In this document: piece by piece, positions 10,394-28,889 of the stretch
Layout: each line of letters begins with the position of its first letter
How positions within the stretch are numbered: the first letter of the stretch is position 1
DNA from: a virus
DNA length: 64,000 bases
Reading direction: 5' to 3' (one strand)
Virus record (IMG/VR): IMGVR_UViG_3300037247_000961
Span: 1-64,000 of that record
Notes under the pieces: generated by a model
Told to the model about the DNA's origin: nothing
Seen by the model: only the letters and a program-made list of their open reading frames with translations
Databases searched by the model: none
Program-made: the position numbers and the translations under genes

Positions 10394-10562
10394 GTTGGCG
10401 TTGACGTAAACGCCCAGGAGCTTGCGCAATGGTCCGGCTGCCCAAGGGCACCGCATGTATAGCTGCAATAAGCATTGTCCGAATGTGGCATAAGGCTCAC
10501 GAACCACTTACGACAGTTTGCGCATTCACGGCGCCGGGCAGCAAAGGCCAAAATGATTGCAC

Positions 10563-10970
10563 TCATGCGTAGGGTTCTCCCTCTTCATCAACAGTCGGCA
10601 CTGTGCGCCACTCCGAATCCCCGGTGCCTGCGCGCTCCCACTTCTGTTGCAAAACATGATTGTGGCGTTTAAGTTGCCGACGCAACTCCATCGTAGGCAC
10701 CCACACATCCTCCGCGGCAAGCAGCTTCGCCGCTTCGACGTCCGTGGCCCAGCACTGCCCACCTTGCCACGCCTCGCATGTGCCGGTTGGATTAAATTTG
10801 AGCCACTCCCATGCGTCGTGGCACGTCATGATCCATTCCCATCCCATGCCCTCCAGCAAGTCAATGACGGGCTGGCTCAGTCCACGGAGTTTCTTCGACC
10901 TTGACCATTCCTTGCCCTCGCGCAGCGTTATAGCCCGGGCGGGGGTCAATTGGTGTTCACTCATCTTCAT
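10563..10970 (-). CDS. Hypothetical protein
   Basis: GAGGAG RBS; Trp-rich 135-aa ORF. Confidence 0.6.
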   Translation of the reverse strand: MKMSEHQLTPARAITLREGKEWSRSKKLRGLSQPVIDLLEGMGWEWIMTCHDAWEWLKFNPTGTCEAWQGGQCWATDVEAAKLLAAEDVWVPTMELRRQLKRHNHVLQQKWERAGTGDSEWRTVPTVDEEGEPYA

Positions 10971-11503
10971 ACTCCTCGCGCATGCGCTTGTTGTTCGCTA
11001 CAGCCCCATCCCAGGGCCATGCGGGCGATATAAGGGGCATCCAGCCATTTGGAAGCCCCCGACAAACGGTCTAATGTCACCCTCCAGGCACCACGAGGAT
11101 CGTATTACCTGACAATGGTAACACAGCCATCGATGGAACCTTATTCGCCATGGACCGTATCTGGAGTGCGCCTTTGCGGCCGTAGTCCGAGTCAAACTTG
11201 ATATCGACGTATGTATCCACATCAAAGTAAAACCGCACCACGGCGCTATTGCGAATAGCGTCAGCGTCGTGTTGCGTAGCAAATTGATGATCCGCTGCAT
11301 CGATATAGCCACGCTCATCAATTATAATGGTCCGTTTCATGCTTTGGTTCCTCCTCCACAATCCTCGGCCCGTAGCCGGCTGAACAGGATCAGGTCGACC
11401 TCATCCAGGTCCATTGTAGAGATGCGCGTGTCCGTATAGCCCAGGGCGCGCAATGCCCCAATGTCGCGCGGTGAAATCTTCACCCGGTCAGATACGGCAC
11501 TGG

Positions 11504-12673
11504 TCATAACACCAATCCCAGTTTAATGTCCTTGACCATGATGCAGCCTTCTTCCTTGGCGGGTTCGGTCTTGGTTATGATGCCATAATGCTGATGCGCT
11601 TCGAGGACTGCCATGTTGAAGAGAATGGCCTTGTGACGAATGCTCTTCGCGATTTCGAAGTAGTCCACGTCGACCTTCGCCGTCGGCTTCTCCCAGTCCT
11701 CCTTGACGTACGCGCCATCGCGGACCATGGACTCTTTTATCCGGCGCTCTTTACCCGAATATCCACCGCCGGGCAGGTCATCTTCGGTCCAGTCAACATA
11801 CTTCAGGAACGCCTCGCGAATCTCTGAGTACAGAAATTCACATCCCACCTCGTCCAGTTGGGCAAAGAAGGCCTTGCTTTCCTCGGGTTCGTCGAAGAAG
11901 AACTCAACCATGTCATCGATAAGCTTCTGGACCTTGTCGATCATGGTACAGTGATCATACCAGAGTCCGGCCTCATTCCAGTCGTCGGCATTCATTCGGT
12001 CGGCGCCGATCACATAGGCCTTCGGCTCTTTATCCAACGGCCCCGGCTCCCCGCGGGCATCGGCTGCCCCTTGCAGTTCCTCCAGGCTTGGAGTGTAATC
12101 GGTCTCCGGCTCTTCCACGGGTATGTCCTCGCCGTAGTTTTCCCGATCAACAACTGTGCCTTCGGGCGTTGGATCACTCAGCTCCCTCTCACGCCGCCGG
12201 CACTGATCTCCGATCTCGGAACAGGTCAGACTATCGAGATGCGGAACGATCAACTGAGCAGCGTCCCATAAGCCACATTGACCGTTCTCATCCGACTCAT
12301 TGCCCTCGGTCACGGTTTCGATCATCATATCGACCGCGGCGCATACCTTGGCCTCCCATTGGGCCTGCAGTGTTTCGGCCTCGCACTGTCGGTCGTACGT
12401 ACGTCCACCTGGCCGGCCCACGCGTTCCTCGGTATCATACTCGGGCAACACTTCCGGGTACATGCGGTCTAGTTCGTCCAGGCGAACCAGACATAAACCG
12501 CCGAGGCTCCCCGCTGTTTTGGAGTCCATTTGCTCCACGAGCGTTTTTGCGATGTTGAGCAGTACCTGTTGCTCGGCGTCCTTCATGGCATCGATGGTGC
12601 GGTCAAATTCCTCATCGCCCATAATGTTCATGAAGACATCCGTTTCGACCTTGTCGGGATTGCTTGGTAACAT
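11504..12673 (-). CDS. Highly acidic hypothetical protein (389 aa)
   Basis: GAGGAG RBS; Asp/Glu-rich; no family recognised. Confidence 0.75.
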   Translation of the reverse strand: MLPSNPDKVETDVFMNIMGDEEFDRTIDAMKDAEQQVLLNIAKTLVEQMDSKTAGSLGGLCLVRLDELDRMYPEVLPEYDTEERVGRPGGRTYDRQCEAETLQAQWEAKVCAAVDMMIETVTEGNESDENGQCGLWDAAQLIVPHLDSLTCSEIGDQCRRRERELSDPTPEGTVVDRENYGEDIPVEEPETDYTPSLEELQGAADARGEPGPLDKEPKAYVIGADRMNADDWNEAGLWYDHCTMIDKVQKLIDDMVEFFFDEPEESKAFFAQLDEVGCEFLYSEIREAFLKYVDWTEDDLPGGGYSGKERRIKESMVRDGAYVKEDWEKPTAKVDVDYFEIAKSIRHKAILFNMAVLEAHQHYGIITKTEPAKEEGCIMVKDIKLGLVL

Positions 12674-12703
12674 CGTCGTCTCCTCAATTGATCGGGTTGC
12701 TTA

Positions 12704-13090
12704 CTAGAACGGCCCAAGGACCGTAGTCAACTTGCCCTTCAGCGTGGCGGCGTTGAACGGTTTGACAATGTAGTTGCTGACACCGGCCTCTTTGGCCGCA
12801 AGCACGTTCTCGCTTCGGCTTTCAGGCACAATCATGATGAAGGGAGTTTCCTTGAGCCCAGCGGCGGCGCGTACTTCCTTGAGGAATTGGAGGCCGCTCA
12901 TCGGCTCCATGTTCCAATCGGAAATGACCAAGCCATAGGGCTTGTCGCGCAGCTTCTGGAGCGCCACACTGCCGTTGGTGGTTTCATCCACATTGTTGAA
13001 GTCAAGCTGCCAGAGCAAGTTCCGGATGATCCTGAGCATGGTCTTGTAATCGTCCACGATCAGAATCGGCGTACACTTCACATCGTTCAT
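12704..13090 (-). CDS. cheY: CheY-like single-domain response regulator (conserved Thr-Ala replaced by Val-Pro)
   Basis: ILIVDD, ISDWNMEPMSG, NYIVKPF motifs typical of alphaproteobacterial CheY. Confidence 0.9.
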   Translation of the reverse strand: MNDVKCTPILIVDDYKTMLRIIRNLLWQLDFNNVDETTNGSVALQKLRDKPYGLVISDWNMEPMSGLQFLKEVRAAAGLKETPFIMIVPESRSENVLAAKEAGVSNYIVKPFNAATLKGKLTTVLGPF

Positions 13091-13117
13091 TGGATTCCCT
13101 CCTTTATCGAACCATTA

Positions 13118-13146
13118 ATTATCCCACAAATGACAAGAGGCGTCAA
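13118..13146 (-). promoter_or_regulatory. sigma70-like promoter TTGACG-N17-GATAAT driving cheY
   Basis: Directly upstream of the AAGGAGG RBS of cheY. Confidence 0.65.
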
Positions 13147-13713
13147 GCCTTAACTTGAAATTTAGCCTCCAAAGCCTTCGCCTGTAGGTACCTCAACGCT
13201 TGATATAGGGTATGGTATGTGCTCGCTTTCATAACCACGGTGCGAGCAACGAATTCGGTGTCTATTCCATGGGGCTCTCTCTCCGGATGGTTAGTATTCC
13301 AGGCAATGCCTTCTGTGATCTCGGCATCATCGATCAGTAGAACCGCCAGCCGATGCGCCAAATCGCGCTTTGTATATGCCGACACTTCCCCATGAGTCGT
13401 CCGCATCATGTGCGGTGAGGTTAGGGTAGTTTTGACACTGGCCTCACGGCAATTAGCCAAAGCCCTAAGGCACTCCTCGATAATCAGCATGTTCGCTTTC
13501 ATCCTGCATCCTCCAGCCTGAGGAAGAACCATTCCTCCCCATCGAAAAAATGAACTTCGTCCGTACGGGCAATTAGTTTTTCGATTACGCTCCAATCCTT
13601 GACCTCATCGTAGCGCAGGGCAATGCTCATTGCACCTTGCATCAAACGCGCTAATCGATGCTTAACATTGTAGCCTACATGAGGCCCCAACGCTAATGCC
13701 AATTGACGACCAG

Positions 13714-13932
13714 TCATGCTTTTCTCCATACCCAGAAGGCACGTATGTTTAGGATTGCAGCGCCAAAGTTTGTTGCCACTACCCCGTAAGCCTCGATGGA
13801 CCAGCCAAACAGTCCCATCAAGACGGCTCCGATTCCGAGTAAAACAGGTGCCCAGAGGGATTTTCGTTCCATTAGGAACAGTCCTGCTAAGATGCCTGCC
13901 GCTCCCGCCCATTGAAGAAGGAAATCGATCAT
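13714..13932 (-). CDS. Small multi-pass membrane protein (half PnuC/SemiSWEET-like topology)
   Basis: Three hydrophobic segments from MIDFLLQW. Confidence 0.5.
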   Translation of the reverse strand: MIDFLLQWAGAAGILAGLFLMERKSLWAPVLLGIGAVLMGLFGWSIEAYGVVATNFGAAILNIRAFWVWRKA

Positions 13933-14393
13933 GGTTGCACATTTGAAAACTTGGTGTTGCCACTGAGCGCCGCTGCTGCATTGATCTTTGCCTCGGCTAC
14001 GTCTAACTGCTCCAGTAGCCATACAACTAGATCCGCATGGTCCGGCCACGTAAGGTCGCGGCCCGTAGCGGCTTGCCACCTTTTGATAGCGCGCATGTCG
14101 GCTGCCCAACGCATGTCGAAGATTGCTTCGATCTCCACCACACTCTCTCGCAACTCCTCAATCTCTTCAGTCATCATAATCCTCCGGGCCTGCCGGATAC
14201 ACGGTTTCAGCCTTCCCGTCCCATCCCGATACCAATGGAAAGCCTCGCCACTCCCTATGGCCATCGGGTATTGGCGACGTCGGCCGACGCACGGCCGGAT
14301 CGCCGGGCTGGCACTCGACATACATCTGTTCGAAGCGTGTGCCCTTACGGCCTACGTTGGCACGGATTCGCGTCGTTGGAACCATGATGTTCA

Positions 14394-14900
14394 TTAGGGA
14401 CCACCTCTAAAGTATGTGGAAGGCGCAGCTTGCGGAGGCTTAGGTGGCCGCGCCCGCTCGGGCGGAGGATTAACAAACTCCGGCGACTTTGGACTCCATA
14501 AATCAAAGATAAACCGCATCCTAAATTTTCCCTTGCGGCCCTTACGCTCTGATTCCTTCCGTTTCTCTTGCATCTTTTCAGCTTGCTTATCTGACCACGG
14601 TAAGGAAATTGCACGAGGCTGTCCCGGCCCGGCATCGATATAGAGATATATCGCTTCGCCTCGCACCAACTTGAACGATAAGACCACCACGTCGCCGTCC
14701 AAGCGTACCGCTGCCCAATGCGGTCGGTGCCAGCCGAGCGTCTCTAGCGATGCCGGGCCGAGCGCGCCAAGGATGACAATGAATCCAAGGACCGCCAAGC
14801 CCCGGACTCGTGTCTCCCGTCGCGACCAAATAGTTGCCCACGTATACAGCGCAAACAGTACTGCAACGCCGCAGAAAATGAGAAAGGCCTGTCCCATCAT
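14394..14900 (-). CDS. Membrane protein (2 N-terminal TM, Pro-rich tail); third gene of MotA/ExbB-like unit
   Basis: TM segments, EAIYLY...PRAISLPW motif; overlaps upstream gene. Confidence 0.75.
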   Translation of the reverse strand: MMGQAFLIFCGVAVLFALYTWATIWSRRETRVRGLAVLGFIVILGALGPASLETLGWHRPHWAAVRLDGDVVVLSFKLVRGEAIYLYIDAGPGQPRAISLPWSDKQAEKMQEKRKESERKGRKGKFRMRFIFDLWSPKSPEFVNPPPERARPPKPPQAAPSTYFRGGP

Positions 14901-15484
14901 AGATCGTCTCTTACCCCACTTGTATCACGTAATGATTCAAACAAATGACTCATAGATCCAGGAACAAGTTTGCCTTTCCGGTCCAGTTCAAATCGAACCA
15001 TGGTGATTTCTTCTTTCGATGCAACCAGTTCGGCCTCAGTATAGGTAATCGTCGTCATTGCTCCATTGGGCTTGACCTTAACCGTGACTTCCAATTTGAC
15101 CAGGACCGGTAAGTACCCGCCGCACTTGTAGCAGTGGACATTGATGATGTATTCACCGGCCGGCACCCCTCGGGTATAGGCGTTTTCATAATTGATGCCA
15201 GACAAATCCGATCCAGTGCCAGTATCATCGCGCAACAAATTCCAAAGTTGACCACTCTTGTTTGAATAGCCTACCGGCACAATTTCCTCCGGTCCCCATA
15301 ACCAAAGGTCAACGTCGATATTGCCGTTCGGCCATACAATGTGGACGATGACATTGCCAGGCGGATTGGATTGATCTTCCATTGCAGGAGGGTTGAGATG
15401 CGGAAGCATCCACACTACAAAGACAAAGAACGCCATGACCAAAAGCAACGTGAAATCACGCCATGTTGTGCCACCTGCGTTCAT
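14897..15484 (-). CDS. Single-TM partner of the MotA/ExbB-like protein with periplasmic beta domain (DVDLW...DDTG...NYE)
   Basis: Asp at the start of the TM (WRDFTLLL), as in MotB/ExbD/TolR; YfaP/DUF2135-like motifs. Confidence 0.7.
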   Translation of the reverse strand: MNAGGTTWRDFTLLLVMAFFVFVVWMLPHLNPPAMEDQSNPPGNVIVHIVWPNGNIDVDLWLWGPEEIVPVGYSNKSGQLWNLLRDDTGTGSDLSGINYENAYTRGVPAGEYIINVHCYKCGGYLPVLVKLEVTVKVKPNGAMTTITYTEAELVASKEEITMVRFELDRKGKLVPGSMSHLFESLRDTSGVRDDL

Positions 15485-16023
15485 GGGGTATCAACACAGT
15501 CCGCAATCATGCACGCCATGGCCGTGCGTAATATACGCTGATTGATCTCGTTCCACATGCTAAAGACTGCACCGACAATGGTTGTATTCAGCGCCACACG
15601 CATTCCATCCATCAATGGCCCAATGGCGTCGGAGACTCCGCGGGCACTGCCAAGGCTCACTTCATTAACGCCGGACAATGCATAACTGAATCCGATAATT
15701 GTTCCAAGCAACCCGAGCCCCACAAGCCAGCCGCTTACGTCCCGGAGCCACGCCACTTTGGCCCAAGCCTTATCGACGGCCCCTGGCGGCATGTGCCATC
15801 CTCCCTCTTTCTTGATGCGATTTAACTCGTATCCCCCGCGGAGTATGCGACGAAAAGTAGTCGCCCAACATGCGACGAACAACAAGGCAATGATTGACGT
15901 GATGTAAGTAAAATCGTTCCCGTAGAGCGGTTGAATCCAGCCATGGTCGAATGCCATGACGCCGGCCAGCACTGCAAGTAAATTGACAAGTAGGAAACGG
16001 TAAATGAGTAAATTGTTAAGCAT
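15481..16023 (-). CDS. MotA/TolQ/ExbB proton-channel family protein
   Basis: LGLLGTIIG and GMRVALNTTIVG motifs. Confidence 0.85.
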   Translation of the reverse strand: MLNNLLIYRFLLVNLLAVLAGVMAFDHGWIQPLYGNDFTYITSIIALLFVACWATTFRRILRGGYELNRIKKEGGWHMPPGAVDKAWAKVAWLRDVSGWLVGLGLLGTIIGFSYALSGVNEVSLGSARGVSDAIGPLMDGMRVALNTTIVGAVFSMWNEINQRILRTAMACMIADCVDTP

Positions 16024-16896
16024 GGCTGGTCACTTCAATCAAAAGCATCTTGGCGGCAATATGGCTCGGAGGCTTACGACCTTGGTTGCGAGGCTGACGC
16101 ACCCATCGCAATGCCCGATTGGCGGCGCGTATGATATCCTCGCGGCGCAGATAGCCTTGAGCATTGCCCTCATCGGTTTTCAGTTGCAGCTTGTGAGTCT
16201 GGTTTGCCATGCTAGTCCTTCGGCTCCATGTCGACACGTTTGACTTCAAAAGGCCACGGCCCTTTAGATGGGTCTGAATCATCCAGGGAATATGTGTATT
16301 CGCCCCGCGCCGTCATAACCGTCAAAGGGTCGTCATCATGGGACGCTTCCTCGGAGCAGTGCCCGAGCAGCTTGTGCCACGTCCACCCCTTCGCCTTGTG
16401 GGCCACAGTCACGTAAGGCTTGTCAGCTATCGGTACATCAAAGGCCTTATGTAAATCGCGCACCATGTCCAGTGTATTGGTCACTTCTTCTCCCTCCAAA
16501 TAAGCACTAATGAAAGCAGGATCACGAACGGCCACAAAAAGAAAACAAGAAGGTTGGCCAGTTTGCCCATCGGCTGCAACCGCCATCTTCCTTTCGTCCA
16601 TCTTATACCCTCAATAAATGCAAGGCCGATGGCAAAGTAGCCTAAAATGATCCAATGAATTTCATTAAGCACTATCATCGTCCTTGTGTTTACGTTCTCG
16701 TGGGTGCTTTTTAGTTTTGTCCTGCGTTCGTTTCGGTCTGAACCGGGCGTCGGCTAGGGATGCCGCCACCCGGTTCTTAAGGTTGATCTTGACCGGCGAT
16801 GTTGGATTAAGTGAGGATCTGTTCGATGGTCCGCATTGCGCACCTCCTTGGTTTTTGGTCATCGGAATCATTTCCATTCATCTTATCAATGATAGA

Positions 16897-17454
16897 CTAA
16901 TGAGACGCAGAAGGCAACCTTAATTTTGCCATTTGACAACGGATGATGGCCTCAGCATTACCGACCGGTAAAAAGCGCCGCAGGTCGGAAGGTATCTTTC
17001 GGTTCTCCAGCCGGATTGCATCTTTGACCGGCATGCCACAAAAGTCGATACGGTCATTGATACGTTCGGCTAAAGTCAAAACCATCTGCTCGCCAACGTC
17101 GTAGCAGCCTTCATTCTCTCGAATGTTCGGCCACGGGCGCTCATGTAATGGCGGCAAATCAACGGAGAAGCCTTCAGGATTACAGATATCAGCCTCTATC
17201 TCAATTGGCCCAAAGCGATTGGACTTGACACCTTGGCCATTGCCGCTGCGAAAATCTGGGAAGCGCAGCCCTCGAATAATGTCATTGATGGAGCATTCAT
17301 TGATTCCATCAGGATCTGCCATAAATGCAAATTCACATCCATCCTGGACATACACATACGGCCCCAATTCACTCAGGACGCGAGCATCACCAGCATCCTG
17401 CGTTTCCAGGCGGACACCTTCCGTGTCCCGAGAGATTTGAACAATGGCACTCAT
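16897..17454 (-). CDS. Hypothetical protein
   Basis: GGAGG RBS; 185-aa ORF. Confidence 0.65.
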   Translation of the reverse strand: MSAIVQISRDTEGVRLETQDAGDARVLSELGPYVYVQDGCEFAFMADPDGINECSINDIIRGLRFPDFRSGNGQGVKSNRFGPIEIEADICNPEGFSVDLPPLHERPWPNIRENEGCYDVGEQMVLTLAERINDRIDFCGMPVKDAIRLENRKIPSDLRRFLPVGNAEAIIRCQMAKLRLPSASH

Positions 17455-22480: not shown

Positions 22481-23173
22481 TCAAAATAATCCTTTCTGAA
22501 CAGGTTTCGCTTCGACGACGAACATGTCCGGCTTCTTGCGGGCCTCCTTCAAACGTGAACATGCTATATCGAAATACTTTGAATCGATTTCTATTCCAAT
22601 AAAACAACGTCCCATGTTAACACAGGCAACCCCTGTCGATCCACTGCCCATGAAGGGATCAACCACAACCTTCTCATTTGGAATGAAGGTAAGGCACCAT
22701 TCCATAATTTCAATAGGCTTTTGCGTCGGATGAAAATTCCCATCTCGCCGCGATAAAGCTTTCCCTCGCGAATAGGTCTTGATACGCATGGCCTTCATCT
22801 GATTGGTCCACGCGACTTCCCCATCGGCTAACGAAAAATCCCGTTGCCCCTTGTCCCAAATTAACCATCGCATCGTTGGTGGCAAATAATCAGTGAAGTA
22901 ATTTCCCCCCCAAATAATTTGGAGATCACTCTGCTCTAGCATTAAATCAAAGATTTTTTGATCTGGGCGCTCTATGTCCCAACTGCTCTCGCCGTAATAC
23001 TTCCAGCCAAAGCTGCCCTTATGTTTGGCACGCGCCTCATCGGCGCCGATCCCATAGGGAGGGTCAGTGACTATCGCATCTATGTGCCCGAGGGCCGGGA
23101 GAATTTTCAGATTATCTCCTAGATAAATCGTGGAAGCCCCAATAACAACCCGCTTGATCCATGGATCGGTCAT
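22481..23173 (-). CDS. DNA amino-methyltransferase (beta class, DPPY)
   Basis: TDPPY, HPTQKP, DPFMGSGST. Confidence 0.92.
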   Translation of the reverse strand: MTDPWIKRVVIGASTIYLGDNLKILPALGHIDAIVTDPPYGIGADEARAKHKGSFGWKYYGESSWDIERPDQKIFDLMLEQSDLQIIWGGNYFTDYLPPTMRWLIWDKGQRDFSLADGEVAWTNQMKAMRIKTYSRGKALSRRDGNFHPTQKPIEIMEWCLTFIPNEKVVVDPFMGSGSTGVACVNMGRCFIGIEIDSKYFDIACSRLKEARKKPDMFVVEAKPVQKGLF

Positions 23174-24045
23174 AACTTGAAGCCCTCCTGAACAGGCTTG
23201 GTGTATGAAAAATCCAGTGCGCCTTGCCGGTTGGCCTTTTCAATGTTTGTACAGGCCAAATCGAAGTATTTCGGGTCCAGCTCGATCCCGATAAATTTAC
23301 GTTCCATACGGACGCATGCTACTCCCGTAGCCCCGCCTCCCATGAAAGGGTCAATGACAACGTCACCCGGCGCTGTATGGACAGATAAGAATTTCTGCAC
23401 CAACTCCGGAGGCTTGTCGTTGGGGTGTACCTCCCCATAGCGTCTAGGCTTGGAAAATGAAACGATGTTCGGCATACTGCCTGGATTAGTGGACGAGCCC
23501 CCACCGGGCCACGCAATTTTAGATCCCTCCCGCATGCCCACAATGATAAGCTCGTGCTGCCGGCGGTAACGCCATCCGGTGCCGGGATTCTTCTTGTCCC
23601 AAATCACCATATGAAAAAAGGTCATTCCCTTTTCGTTCATGCGGTCGCTGATCCAGGTATAAGATGGATCACCTTCAGCGCCCCCGCCCATTGAGCAATA
23701 GCATGCCGCGGAGAAATCCTTCTTGAGAAGCCGTGCCGCATGGATCAAAGTGCCATCGATCACGTGGCGCATGGCTGCCTTATCATCGTTCTCAATCGCC
23801 GCTTGGGCTTGAATGTCACCTTTGCGCGTGCTTGTGCCATCGGTGAACGGTAGCGAATAGCCCCTGGTCGAGTTCAGCGTAGCGAATCCCTTAGCGTTGT
23901 TCTCGTTGCCATACGGCGGGTCTGTCCAGACCATATCCACGGATTCATCCGGCAAGCCGGCCATGACTTCCAAAGAGTCCCCCAGGTATAGCGTGCAATC
24001 TCCTATGACTTTTTGCATGTCAACCGCCTTCATTTGGGCTTTCAT
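23170..24045 (-). CDS. DNA amino-methyltransferase (beta class, DPPY)
   Basis: TDPPY, HPNDKP, DPFMGGGAT. Confidence 0.92.
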   Translation of the reverse strand: MKAQMKAVDMQKVIGDCTLYLGDSLEVMAGLPDESVDMVWTDPPYGNENNAKGFATLNSTRGYSLPFTDGTSTRKGDIQAQAAIENDDKAAMRHVIDGTLIHAARLLKKDFSAACYCSMGGGAEGDPSYTWISDRMNEKGMTFFHMVIWDKKNPGTGWRYRRQHELIIVGMREGSKIAWPGGGSSTNPGSMPNIVSFSKPRRYGEVHPNDKPPELVQKFLSVHTAPGDVVIDPFMGGGATGVACVRMERKFIGIELDPKYFDLACTNIEKANRQGALDFSYTKPVQEGFKL

Positions 24046-27173: not shown

Positions 27174-27603
27174 CCGTTATCTTCACACCACAATCATCAA
27201 GGATGCGCTTCGCCCGTGCGACGTTCATCTTATGCTCAGCGGTGAGTGTCCGTTCCGAATGGTCTGACCATACTACCTCGGACAAACCCCAAGACGCAAT
27301 ATGTTTCGCACATTCTTTGCACGGCGGGCGTGTCAAGAAAATAGTATAACCTTCGATGTCCTCGGCCGCATGTTTGATGGCGTTCATCTCAGCATGGATC
27401 ACACGGTCATATTTTTCCGCGCGGTCCTCATACCACTCGACTCGGTCCTCCATGCTTTTGGGGAATCCGTTGTAACCTTCCGAGCAGACGGTTTTGTTAT
27501 GGCGAATGATGACTGCGCCACACTTCGTCGACGGATCGCGAGAACGTATAGCGACAACAGCCGCCTTGTGAAGTTGCCACTCATTGTATCCGGGTCTCAT
27601 CAA
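27157..27603 (-). CDS. dCMP deaminase
   Basis: SRDPSTKCGA, GYNG, HAEMN, PCKEC. Confidence 0.92.
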   Translation of the reverse strand: MMRPGYNEWQLHKAAVVAIRSRDPSTKCGAVIIRHNKTVCSEGYNGFPKSMEDRVEWYEDRAEKYDRVIHAEMNAIKHAAEDIEGYTIFLTRPPCKECAKHIASWGLSEVVWSDHSERTLTAEHKMNVARAKRILDDCGVKITVVHRE

Positions 27604-28889
27604 TTTACCTCCGCAAACATACCAGCGTCCATCTGTATTCGCTTTCTAGCCATGTCCGCATATTCCGGGTTCAACTCAATCAGGATGGCACTGCGCTTGA
27701 GCCGGTCGGCAACCAGCCCCGTGGTCCCGGCTCCACCGAAGGGATCAAGCACGGTGCAGGGCACCTCTGCCAAGCCGCAGTCGCATGATGGGCTCCAGCC
27801 GACTATCTGCGTTTTGTAGCGATCACCAGCTTGTGTGCGGTCGCCGCCGTCTCGGTCTCGTGTTTTACCACGATCAAAAGCACTGCCCTTAAGATCATCG
27901 CGCAACTCGGTTGTTCTCTCCACGTCTCGCATCCACAGCGCCCCGCACTTCGGACAGCAACCTTTCTCACTCGTGCCCGCCTTGATACAGGGCTCGATCA
28001 GCGCCGGGGGGAAAGTGGCAAAGTGGGCACCAGGGAAAGGTTGCGTGGCCACGGTCCAAACATTGCGTATGTTGCGACCTAACTTCTCCTGCCGCATAAG
28101 TTTCTCGTGTTGATTATTAAGTGTCTTTTTATGTGACCGATTACCTGTTAATGTATCCTTAGGTCCACCTGTCTGGTTCTCAAAGTTGGGTTGGCTTAGG
28201 CGCGCAATCGAAACATCACTATAGGGCTCTTTCACAGCTTCAACGTCGTAGTAATACCGCTGCGACTTCGCCAATAGATATATCTTCTCGTGGCTTGACG
28301 TAGGTCGGTCAGTGACACTCTCGGGCATGGGATTCGGCTTGTGCCAAATAATCTCCGAGCGCAGCCACCAACCGTCCGCTTGCAAGGCCAGTGCCACACG
28401 GGCAGGCATCATGCAAAGGTCTTTTTCTTTAAAAGTGTCATTTCTTGTTCGTTCCAATACCGACAATCCTCGATTGGCGGATTCACAATCCAGCCCCCTA
28501 GCATTTCCAAGTGACGCATCAGCATTGTCTTTTTGCCAAGCACGAGAACGCTGTCCCCTGCCGTAAATATCTCCAAGATAGGCATGTTCCTTTCCTCCAT
28601 GTCCGCTACCGCCCTTTGCAGGATTACGGTAATAACTATCCCCAAGATTGAGCCAAACCGTTCCATCCTTCCGCAATACTCTACGCACTTCCTGAAACAC
28701 ATTGACTAATGCATCAATATAATCTTGAGGTATTTGTTCAAGGCCTATCTGCCCATCCACACCATAATCCCGTAAACCCCAATAAGGCGGACTTGTGACG
28801 ACACAATGCACAGACTCATCCGCCAAACTAGAAAGCTTCTCTTTGGCATCTCCGACAAGAATTTTTACGCTCATTTTGCTTCGCCCCAA
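27600..28889 (-). CDS. DNA amino-methyltransferase (beta class, SPPY, likely N4-C) with zinc-ribbon insert
   Basis: VTSPPY, HFATFP, CPKC...CDC, DPFGGAGTT. Confidence 0.92.
   Translation of the reverse strand: MGRSKMSVKILVGDAKEKLSSLADESVHCVVTSPPYWGLRDYGVDGQIGLEQIPQDYIDALVNVFQEVRRVLRKDGTVWLNLGDSYYRNPAKGGSGHGGKEHAYLGDIYGRGQRSRAWQKDNADASLGNARGLDCESANRGLSVLERTRNDTFKEKDLCMMPARVALALQADGWWLRSEIIWHKPNPMPESVTDRPTSSHEKIYLLAKSQRYYYDVEAVKEPYSDVSIARLSQPNFENQTGGPKDTLTGNRSHKKTLNNQHEKLMRQEKLGRNIRNVWTVATQPFPGAHFATFPPALIEPCIKAGTSEKGCCPKCGALWMRDVERTTELRDDLKGSAFDRGKTRDRDGGDRTQAGDRYKTQIVGWSPSCDCGLAEVPCTVLDPFGGAGTTGLVADRLKRSAILIELNPEYADMARKRIQMDAGMFAEVN

Follow-up and report, generated by a model that had tools for sequence, protein, structure and literature searches.

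A 64,000-nucleotide stretch of viral DNA (hereafter the window, to which all positions refer) encodes a protein that resembles the CheY of a bacterial host closely but has a different pair of residues at the active-site switch. This raises the question of whether a phage has turned the host's own motor-signaling protein against it, or has simply caught a host gene that is now wearing away. The original prediction, made from this locus, favored the former and proposed a decoy that binds CheA or drains phosphate without signaling to the motor, thereby fixing the swimming mode of the infected cell.

A phage-encoded CheY and its β4–α4 loop

The gene and the active-site features that define it are as follows, with residue roles mapped by homology to Escherichia coli CheY; an AF2 model (shallow alignment, pLDDT 63.5) was left unused.

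12704–13090, minus strand: cheY-derived ORF of 128 aa with a single receiver domain, stop codon included (ORF list, profile matches)
13049–13054, minus strand: Asp13–Asp14, the metal-binding acidic pair, kept (translation; invariant alignment columns)
12917–12919, minus strand: Asp58, the phosphorylation site within SDWNMEP, kept (translation; invariant column)
12761–12772, minus strand: Tyr107–Lys110 (YIVK in NYIVKPF), with the aromatic switch residue and the active-site Lys, kept (invariant columns)
12824–12829, minus strand: Val88–Pro89 (GTG CCT) in place of the switch Thr (position T) and the small Ala at T+1 (alignments)

The encoded protein matches PF00072 (Response_reg) with 85.8 bits (cut-off 30.2; E = 2.9e-24) over profile positions 1 to 109 of 111. 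Its best NCBIfam match is the CheY equivalog PRK10610 (NF007901) at 133.5 bits, which falls short of the 189-bit cut-off set for this enteric-CheY equivalog. Against E. coli CheY structures the E value is 3.8e-36, with E. coli and Salmonella CheY both near 1e-36. Identity to the 129-aa CheYs of Kiloniellales and other alphaproteobacteria is 84–88%, the two closest proteins (P0002 and P0003) standing at 88%, and the product is thus the near-host CheY that had been claimed, with the acidic pocket (D13–D14), the phospho-Asp (D58), Y107, and K110 all in place as described.

The record that carries the gene is a virus genome rated complete, 94,430 bp long and bearing direct terminal repeats, and it encodes tape-measure and tail proteins, DNA polymerase, primase, RNR, helicase, and methyltransferase, as expected of a tailed phage; the attribution of the gene to a phage therefore stands. 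No HATPase_c, Hpt, CheW, or CheZ is encoded anywhere in these 94,430 bp, so that the lack of a kinase gene noted for the window extends to the whole phage genome. The nearest matches to the A1-like protein of the phage come from Rhodobacter and Dinoroseobacter siphophages (45–52%), which makes an alphaproteobacterial host likely. Searches for sister phages in IMG/VR with the genes that flank cheY found none closer than 40% at the amino acid level, and a megablast of 12 kb of the phage against 50,697 phage records gave no match.

What sets the phage protein apart is the end of β4, which reads IMIVPES, with Val88 encoded by GTG at 12827–12829 and Pro89 by CCT at 12824–12826. Of the 119 nearest database proteins, 118 have T-A at T/T+1 and a single one (P0062) has M-V, and the cellular cheY genes extracted from species-representative genomes have T-A in 70 cases, S-A in one, and T-S in one, the motif being unmatched in another two. 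The replacement of Thr-Ala by Val-Pro is accordingly confirmed. It changes four of the six bases of the cellular codons (ACG GCC to GTG CCT); an origin by a small inversion or by a compensating pair of frameshifts was considered and rejected, since the nucleotide alignment shows substitutions alone.

A protein that is computationally recognized as a receiver but in which any of DD, D, T, or K is missing counts as a pseudo-receiver (PMC12632262, J Bacteriol 2025), and the phage CheY fits this definition through T, which has become V, while DD, D, and K are present. Among the residues that mark true receivers, it lacks both Thr/Ser at T and a small residue at T+1. Position 87 (T) of true receivers is T in 68.8%, S in 31.0%, and V in 0.02%, and position 88 (T+1) is A in 51.9%, G in 21.6%, and P in 0.04% (PMC12632262). 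In pseudo-receivers, V at T reaches 5.11% and P at T+1 3.05% (PMC12632262), and in this respect the phage protein resembles bacterial pseudo-receivers, in which both residues are enriched relative to true receivers.

The structural setting of the pair suggests what such a change could do. The T+1 residue is usually small, which leaves the phosphorylation site accessible; in the conserved active geometry the backbone N of Ala88 lies 2.0–3.3 Å from a phosphoryl oxygen, and on activation Thr87 shifts from 6.1 Å to 2.5 Å of Asp57. Because Val has no hydroxyl and Pro no amide hydrogen, both ligands that the β4–α4 loop offers the phosphoryl group are gone, and Pro89 likely restricts access to Asp58 as well. 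In the clockwise C-ring as seen by cryo-EM, the N-terminal helix of FliM is held by α4–β5–α5 of CheY, α1 and loops L2, L6, L8, and L10 contact FliM_M, and a helix of FliG_M is clamped by L6 and L8. The β4–α4 loop is L8, which places Val-Pro in the switching contact with FliM_M and FliG_M, and not in the tether.

The allele is unique in the collections that we searched. A scan of viral contigs for PFIMIVPE gave 0 hits, the V-P motif gave 104 hits in 185,579 species-representative genomes with none in a CheY-like receiver, and no second phage copy of a near-host CheY was found in the collections searched. The clade motif ENVLAAKEAG returned nothing closer than 79% from the genome collection. A single metagenome scan with another clade motif, GLKETPFIM, gave nine loci, all of them T-A, 67–76% identical, and sharing no other DNA with the phage; a 97.6-kb contig among them, taken up as a candidate relative, was dropped on these grounds. 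The other viral receivers that we found in IMG/VR (L196–L199) are 33–37% identical and have T or S at the switch position. Phages seldom carry CheY-like genes, but the phenomenon is not new: Nitrosospira phages have annotated CheR, CheY, and MCP genes (bioRxiv 10.64898/2026.05.02.722434). No other near-host motor CheY with an active site altered solely at T/T+1 turned up in the collections searched.

The one database relative with a changed pair, P0062, is an otherwise typical 129-aa CheY that carries T88M and A89V (IMIMVES) together with K118R. It represents a second, independent double replacement at T/T+1 in the same CheY clade, and Met could be a one-step intermediate on a path from Thr to Val. 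Its source is a 578-bp ENA contig, which may be cellular, viral, or a sequencing artefact.

Donor lineage, capture, and expression signals

In a FastTree phylogeny that includes cellular CheYs, a check that the original prediction had proposed, the phage gene is sister to the cheY of a Kiloniellaceae MAG (L003) with a support of 0.97. This is also the nearest genome, and its cheY is flanked by flagellar genes in the order rod protein, fliL, fliM, DUF6468, an MgtE_N-like gene, cheY, cheZ, and two MotB-plug proteins. In relatives more widely, cheZ lies directly downstream of cheY in 10 of 10 tested loci and fliM upstream in both loci checked. This flagellar fliM–cheY–cheZ context indicates that the captured gene was a motor-proximal, CheZ-partnered CheY and not a sink-type paralogue. 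The genomic association with fliM and cheZ is a feature of the donor lineage; in the phage, cheY is solitary, and the genome has no cheZ, cheA, cheW, or Hpt gene. Loci L003–L016 (e.g., L003:2489–6029), from Kiloniellales, Rhodospirillales, and relatives, share an arrangement in which an E. coli-like cheY sits in the flagellar cluster behind fliL, fliM, DUF6468, and an MgtE_N-like gene, followed directly by a CheZ-family phosphatase and then by MotB-plug proteins, and is distant from any cheA operon.

Homology between the phage gene and the cellular loci begins a few codons inside the ORF, ends exactly at the stop codon, and runs without indels in between, whereas the first ~7 codons, the ribosome-binding site (RBS), and the upstream region of the phage gene have no cellular counterpart. 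By this comparison, capture is limited to the body of the ORF, and the promoter-like site, the RBS, and the start codons are phage-side. With a GC3 of 0.775, cheY tops the 98 ORFs of the phage (mean 0.588, sd 0.082) and approaches the 0.82–0.94 of the donor clade. Such a host-like, unameliorated composition suggests that the capture is probably fairly recent.

Three features bear on how the gene might be expressed.

13097–13105, minus strand: RBS AAAGGAGGG, 6 nt before the ATG (read from the sequence; absent upstream of cellular cheY)
13118–13146, minus strand: sigma-70-like promoter match, TTGACG, 17 nt, (TG)GATAAT (consensus scan)
11504–12673, minus strand: acidic ORFan of 389 aa, which starts 30 nt after cheY (ORF list)

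The candidate promoter agrees with the consensus at 10 of 12 positions and has an extended −10 TG; it shares bases with the stop codon of the ORF upstream and stops 27 nt short of the ATG. The coding strand of the 94 kb has seven sites that score 10 of 12 or better, three of them, including the cheY site, intergenic; in total, such sites are no more numerous than in shuffled sequence or on the other strand. The own promoter of the original claim is plausible, as a match to the consensus.

The ORFan that follows is probably cotranscribed with cheY. It has no match in Pfam, PHROG, or PADLOC, no usable atlas hit, and no detectable link to chemotaxis. More generally, cheY lies within a block of small and medium ORFs (~10500–17000) without matches in Pfam, PHROG, or PADLOC. 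On the minus strand at 14394–16023, 1.3 kb upstream of cheY, there are three overlapping genes. One encodes a 180-aa product with a weak match to the MotA/ExbB/TolQ channel family (Pfam 22.2 bits, just below the cut-off) and a PADLOC match to ZorA over residues 96–164 (E = 3.9e-7); its partners (195 and 168 aa) match no family. We considered a functional link between this unit and cheY and found none to claim: the matches of the product are weak and confined to channel helices, and its 180 aa fall short of a flagellar MotA, so that it looks ExbB/TolQ/ZorA-like and not like a flagellar stator.

Selection, decay, and the reading of the Val-Pro allele

The material for judging selection is one sequence from one metagenomic phage lineage. 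We estimated branch-wise dN/dS by a least-squares fit of Nei–Gojobori distances on the FastTree topology. For the phage branch, which includes a pre-capture stretch, dN is 0.077, dS is 0.598, and dN/dS is 0.13; cellular terminal branches fall mostly at 0.07–0.14, with L006 at 0.40. A cellular-like ratio argues against long neutral evolution, within the reach of a branch that begins before capture. The original prediction was to be abandoned if the substitution proved unique in a gene evolving neutrally; the substitution is indeed unique, and the gene may have evolved neutrally since its capture.

The distribution of amino acid changes speaks in both directions. At columns conserved in at least 97% of the sequences, the phage protein departs eight times (K27W, G30D, D39N, L69F, D76A, T88V, A89P, and K92R), the most among 120 sequences: 85 relatives have no such departure, 22 have one, 7 have two, 4 have three, and a single relative has six, in this last case conservative changes only. 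Altogether, 14 rare states are specific to the phage, 8 in the 86 conserved and 6 in the 35 variable columns (p = 0.23 versus uniform); this is about what a uniform process would give. The cellular constraints are clearly relaxed or altered. Along the sequence, however, the 14 states are clustered, as shown by permuting the three longest stretches free of them (p = 0.022). Residues 8–26 (β1, the DD loop, and α1), 43–68 (α2, β3, and the phospho-Asp loop), and 98–126 (the end of α4, β5, the Lys loop, and α5) contain none of them, the last segment covering the α4–β5–α5 docking face, in which Y107 is also kept. A set of functional residues chosen a priori is spared at p = 0.07. The open frame itself is weak evidence of function, as 48–59% of simulations of unconstrained drift to 14–20 amino acid differences stay stop-free. 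Function is more likely than decay when one considers that the ORF alone was captured, that its expression signals lie on the phage side, and that the other active-site loops and the docking face are free of changes.

Our preferred reading, to which we give a probability of about 0.45, is that the phage CheY is a dominant-negative, non-signaling competitor of host CheY. A motor-type cheY would have come from the fliM–cheY–cheZ cluster of a Kiloniellales-like alphaproteobacterial host, with only the ORF body captured, and phage-side signals would drive its expression during infection. The change from Thr-Ala to Val-Pro would make a pseudo-receiver that has lost the grip of the Thr hydroxyl and of the T+1 N–H on the phosphoryl group, so that the protein would accept phosphate poorly, or to no effect, and could not undergo the L8 movement or make the L8 contact that switching needs. 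Its α4–β5–α5 face would still dock the N-terminal peptide of FliM, the C-terminal peptide of CheZ, and the P2 domain of CheA, in competition with host CheY. At high expression, this would lower the effective CheY-P signal and keep the motor in the default state, no longer coupled to chemotaxis. Any gain for the phage is a matter for speculation: the infected cell may be kept running or in place, flagellum-dependent superinfection may be excluded, or behaviors that depend on CheY-P may be shut off. The analysis establishes what the gene is and where it came from, the bounds of the captured segment, the altered residues with their rarity, and the lack of phage-encoded partners; that the protein is expressed, binds these host partners, prevails over host CheY, and helps the phage is what we infer. 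The more pointed version is held a little more tentatively: the phage would have turned a captured CheZ-partnered motor CheY dominant-negative by altering only the β4–α4 loop, with the phospho-site and docking face kept, so that the protein occupies CheA-P2, FliM-N, and CheZ-C, never switches the motor, and freezes the swimming of the infected cell.

As to the form of the decoy, the best supported part of the original proposal is a CheY that engages partners and does not signal; the draining of phosphate is less likely than stoichiometric competition or trapping. The donor lineage pairs with CheZ and not with a sink CheY, the phage encodes no phosphatase, and the loss of T together with Pro at T+1 would be expected to slow phosphoryl chemistry, all of which argue against a catalytic sink.

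The most serious rival, although unlikely in our estimate, is that the gene is a recently captured passenger, brought in by illegitimate recombination, drifting without benefit to the phage, with Val-Pro as the most visible of its inactivating hits. The host-like GC3 at the top of the 98 phage ORFs would then simply mark a recent arrival. The eight departures at conserved columns, with radical ones such as K27W, G30D, D76A, T88V, and A89P, hits on conserved and variable columns that are indistinguishable from uniform, the uniqueness of the allele, an intact frame that drift often preserves, and a location within a block of ORFans are all as a passenger would have them. Drift explains less well why the capture is confined to the ORF, which has a start region new to it, a strong RBS, and, directly upstream, a near-consensus promoter match with extended −10, why changes cluster so as to spare three long functional segments, and why there are no indels in the homologous region. 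An identical CheY protein is, moreover, recorded on three JGI contigs, and phage genomes quickly delete useless DNA.

The remaining two alternatives accept a function but assign it differently. A pseudo-receiver repurposed for a new partner, either phage-encoded or a host protein outside chemotaxis, would make chemotaxis irrelevant; we regard this as improbable. Pseudo-receivers are common and thought to work through protein–protein contacts instead of phosphorylation, and 5 of the 14 phage-specific states lie in two "bottom" loops distant from the active site, so that the altered α1–β2 (W27, D30) and α3–β4 (A76–A77–G78) loops are candidate surfaces for such a partner. Against it, 84–88% identity to motor CheYs and the conserved docking face make host partners the likeliest ligands, and the neighboring genes hint at no partner. 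More improbable still is a locked-on or phospho-trapped CheY that would occupy FliM and keep the motor in the state set by CheY-P (tumble, stop, or reverse). This would account for the kept phospho-Asp, DD, Lys, and Tyr and for the other unchanged active-site loops, which a non-phosphorylated competitor would not need, and it accords with the lack of a phage CheZ and with Thr87 substitutions that reportedly accept phosphate from CheA and lose it more slowly. Known Thr87 variants, on the other hand, are said to signal less, not more; Pro leaves no T+1 N–H to contact the phosphoryl group, bulk at T+1 is thought to hinder phosphorylation, and the known activating substitutions D13K and Y106W are absent from the phage protein.

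Relation to known receivers and significance

The best PDB sequence match of the phage CheY is 1VLZ, the Thr87Ile variant of E. coli CheY. This variant reportedly can be phosphorylated, and cells that carry it are said to be smooth-swimming and non-chemotactic; substitutions of Thr87 in E. coli CheY, more generally, are reported to permit phosphorylation by CheA with slower loss of phosphate. The two proteins are alike in being single-domain motor CheYs in which the switch Thr has given way to a β-branched hydrophobic residue while the other active-site residues are kept. They differ in that the phage allele is natural and not a laboratory mutant, has Val and not Ile, adds a Pro at T+1 with the consequent loss of the backbone N–H, and is accompanied by six further changes at otherwise conserved positions. 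Furthermore, the phage CheY would act beside a wild-type host CheY, so that its effect would depend on dominance.

Alphaproteobacterial phosphate-sink CheYs, such as CheY1 of Sinorhizobium meliloti, keep the Thr and turn phosphate over. The phage protein resembles them in having a single domain and in that it would compete for CheA phosphoryl groups without a main role in motor signaling, but it has neither the Thr nor the T+1 N–H, derives from a lineage that uses CheZ, and comes from a phage that encodes no phosphatase; sustained drainage of phosphate by it is unlikely. Typical pseudo-receivers belong to old, divergent families, whereas the phage CheY would be a very recent, virus-encoded derivative of a canonical CheY, still 84–88% identical to its cellular relatives. 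It also stands apart from the other stand-alone receivers found in phages (L196–L199), which at 33–37% identity and with T or S kept include no near-host motor CheY.

If the allele is what we propose, it would be a natural double replacement at T/T+1 that takes a true receiver to a pseudo-receiver in few steps, and the first viral chemotaxis decoy made from CheY itself. A decoy of this kind would place the chemotaxis-motor axis among the targets of host takeover by viruses. The gene would offer, in addition, a very young pseudo-receiver with a parent known at 84–88% identity, in which the minimal steps could be dissected residue by residue, and a natural dominant-negative CheY could serve as a genetic tool in marine alphaproteobacteria that are hard to manipulate. 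Should the gene prove only a decaying passenger, it would be an unremarkable instance of phage gene capture. The Val-Pro hypothesis rests on one sequence and is testable with a defined wild-type comparator.

Two further observations concern other genes. Elsewhere in the window, at 22481–24045 and 27600–28889, there are three DNA methyltransferase-like genes of the PHROG 67 family, two of them adjacent to each other, and these adjoin a clamp-loader-like gene and the primase gene. Finally, L198:3941–4375, on a 58,954-bp IMG/VR contig, encodes a viral single-domain receiver that is 33% identical to the phage CheY, resembles this CheY clade at its start (LIVDDYKTM), and has a remodeled phospho-site loop, MVTDHMSDEPVIGMTG, with T-Q at T/T+1, perhaps a phage pseudo-receiver of another kind.
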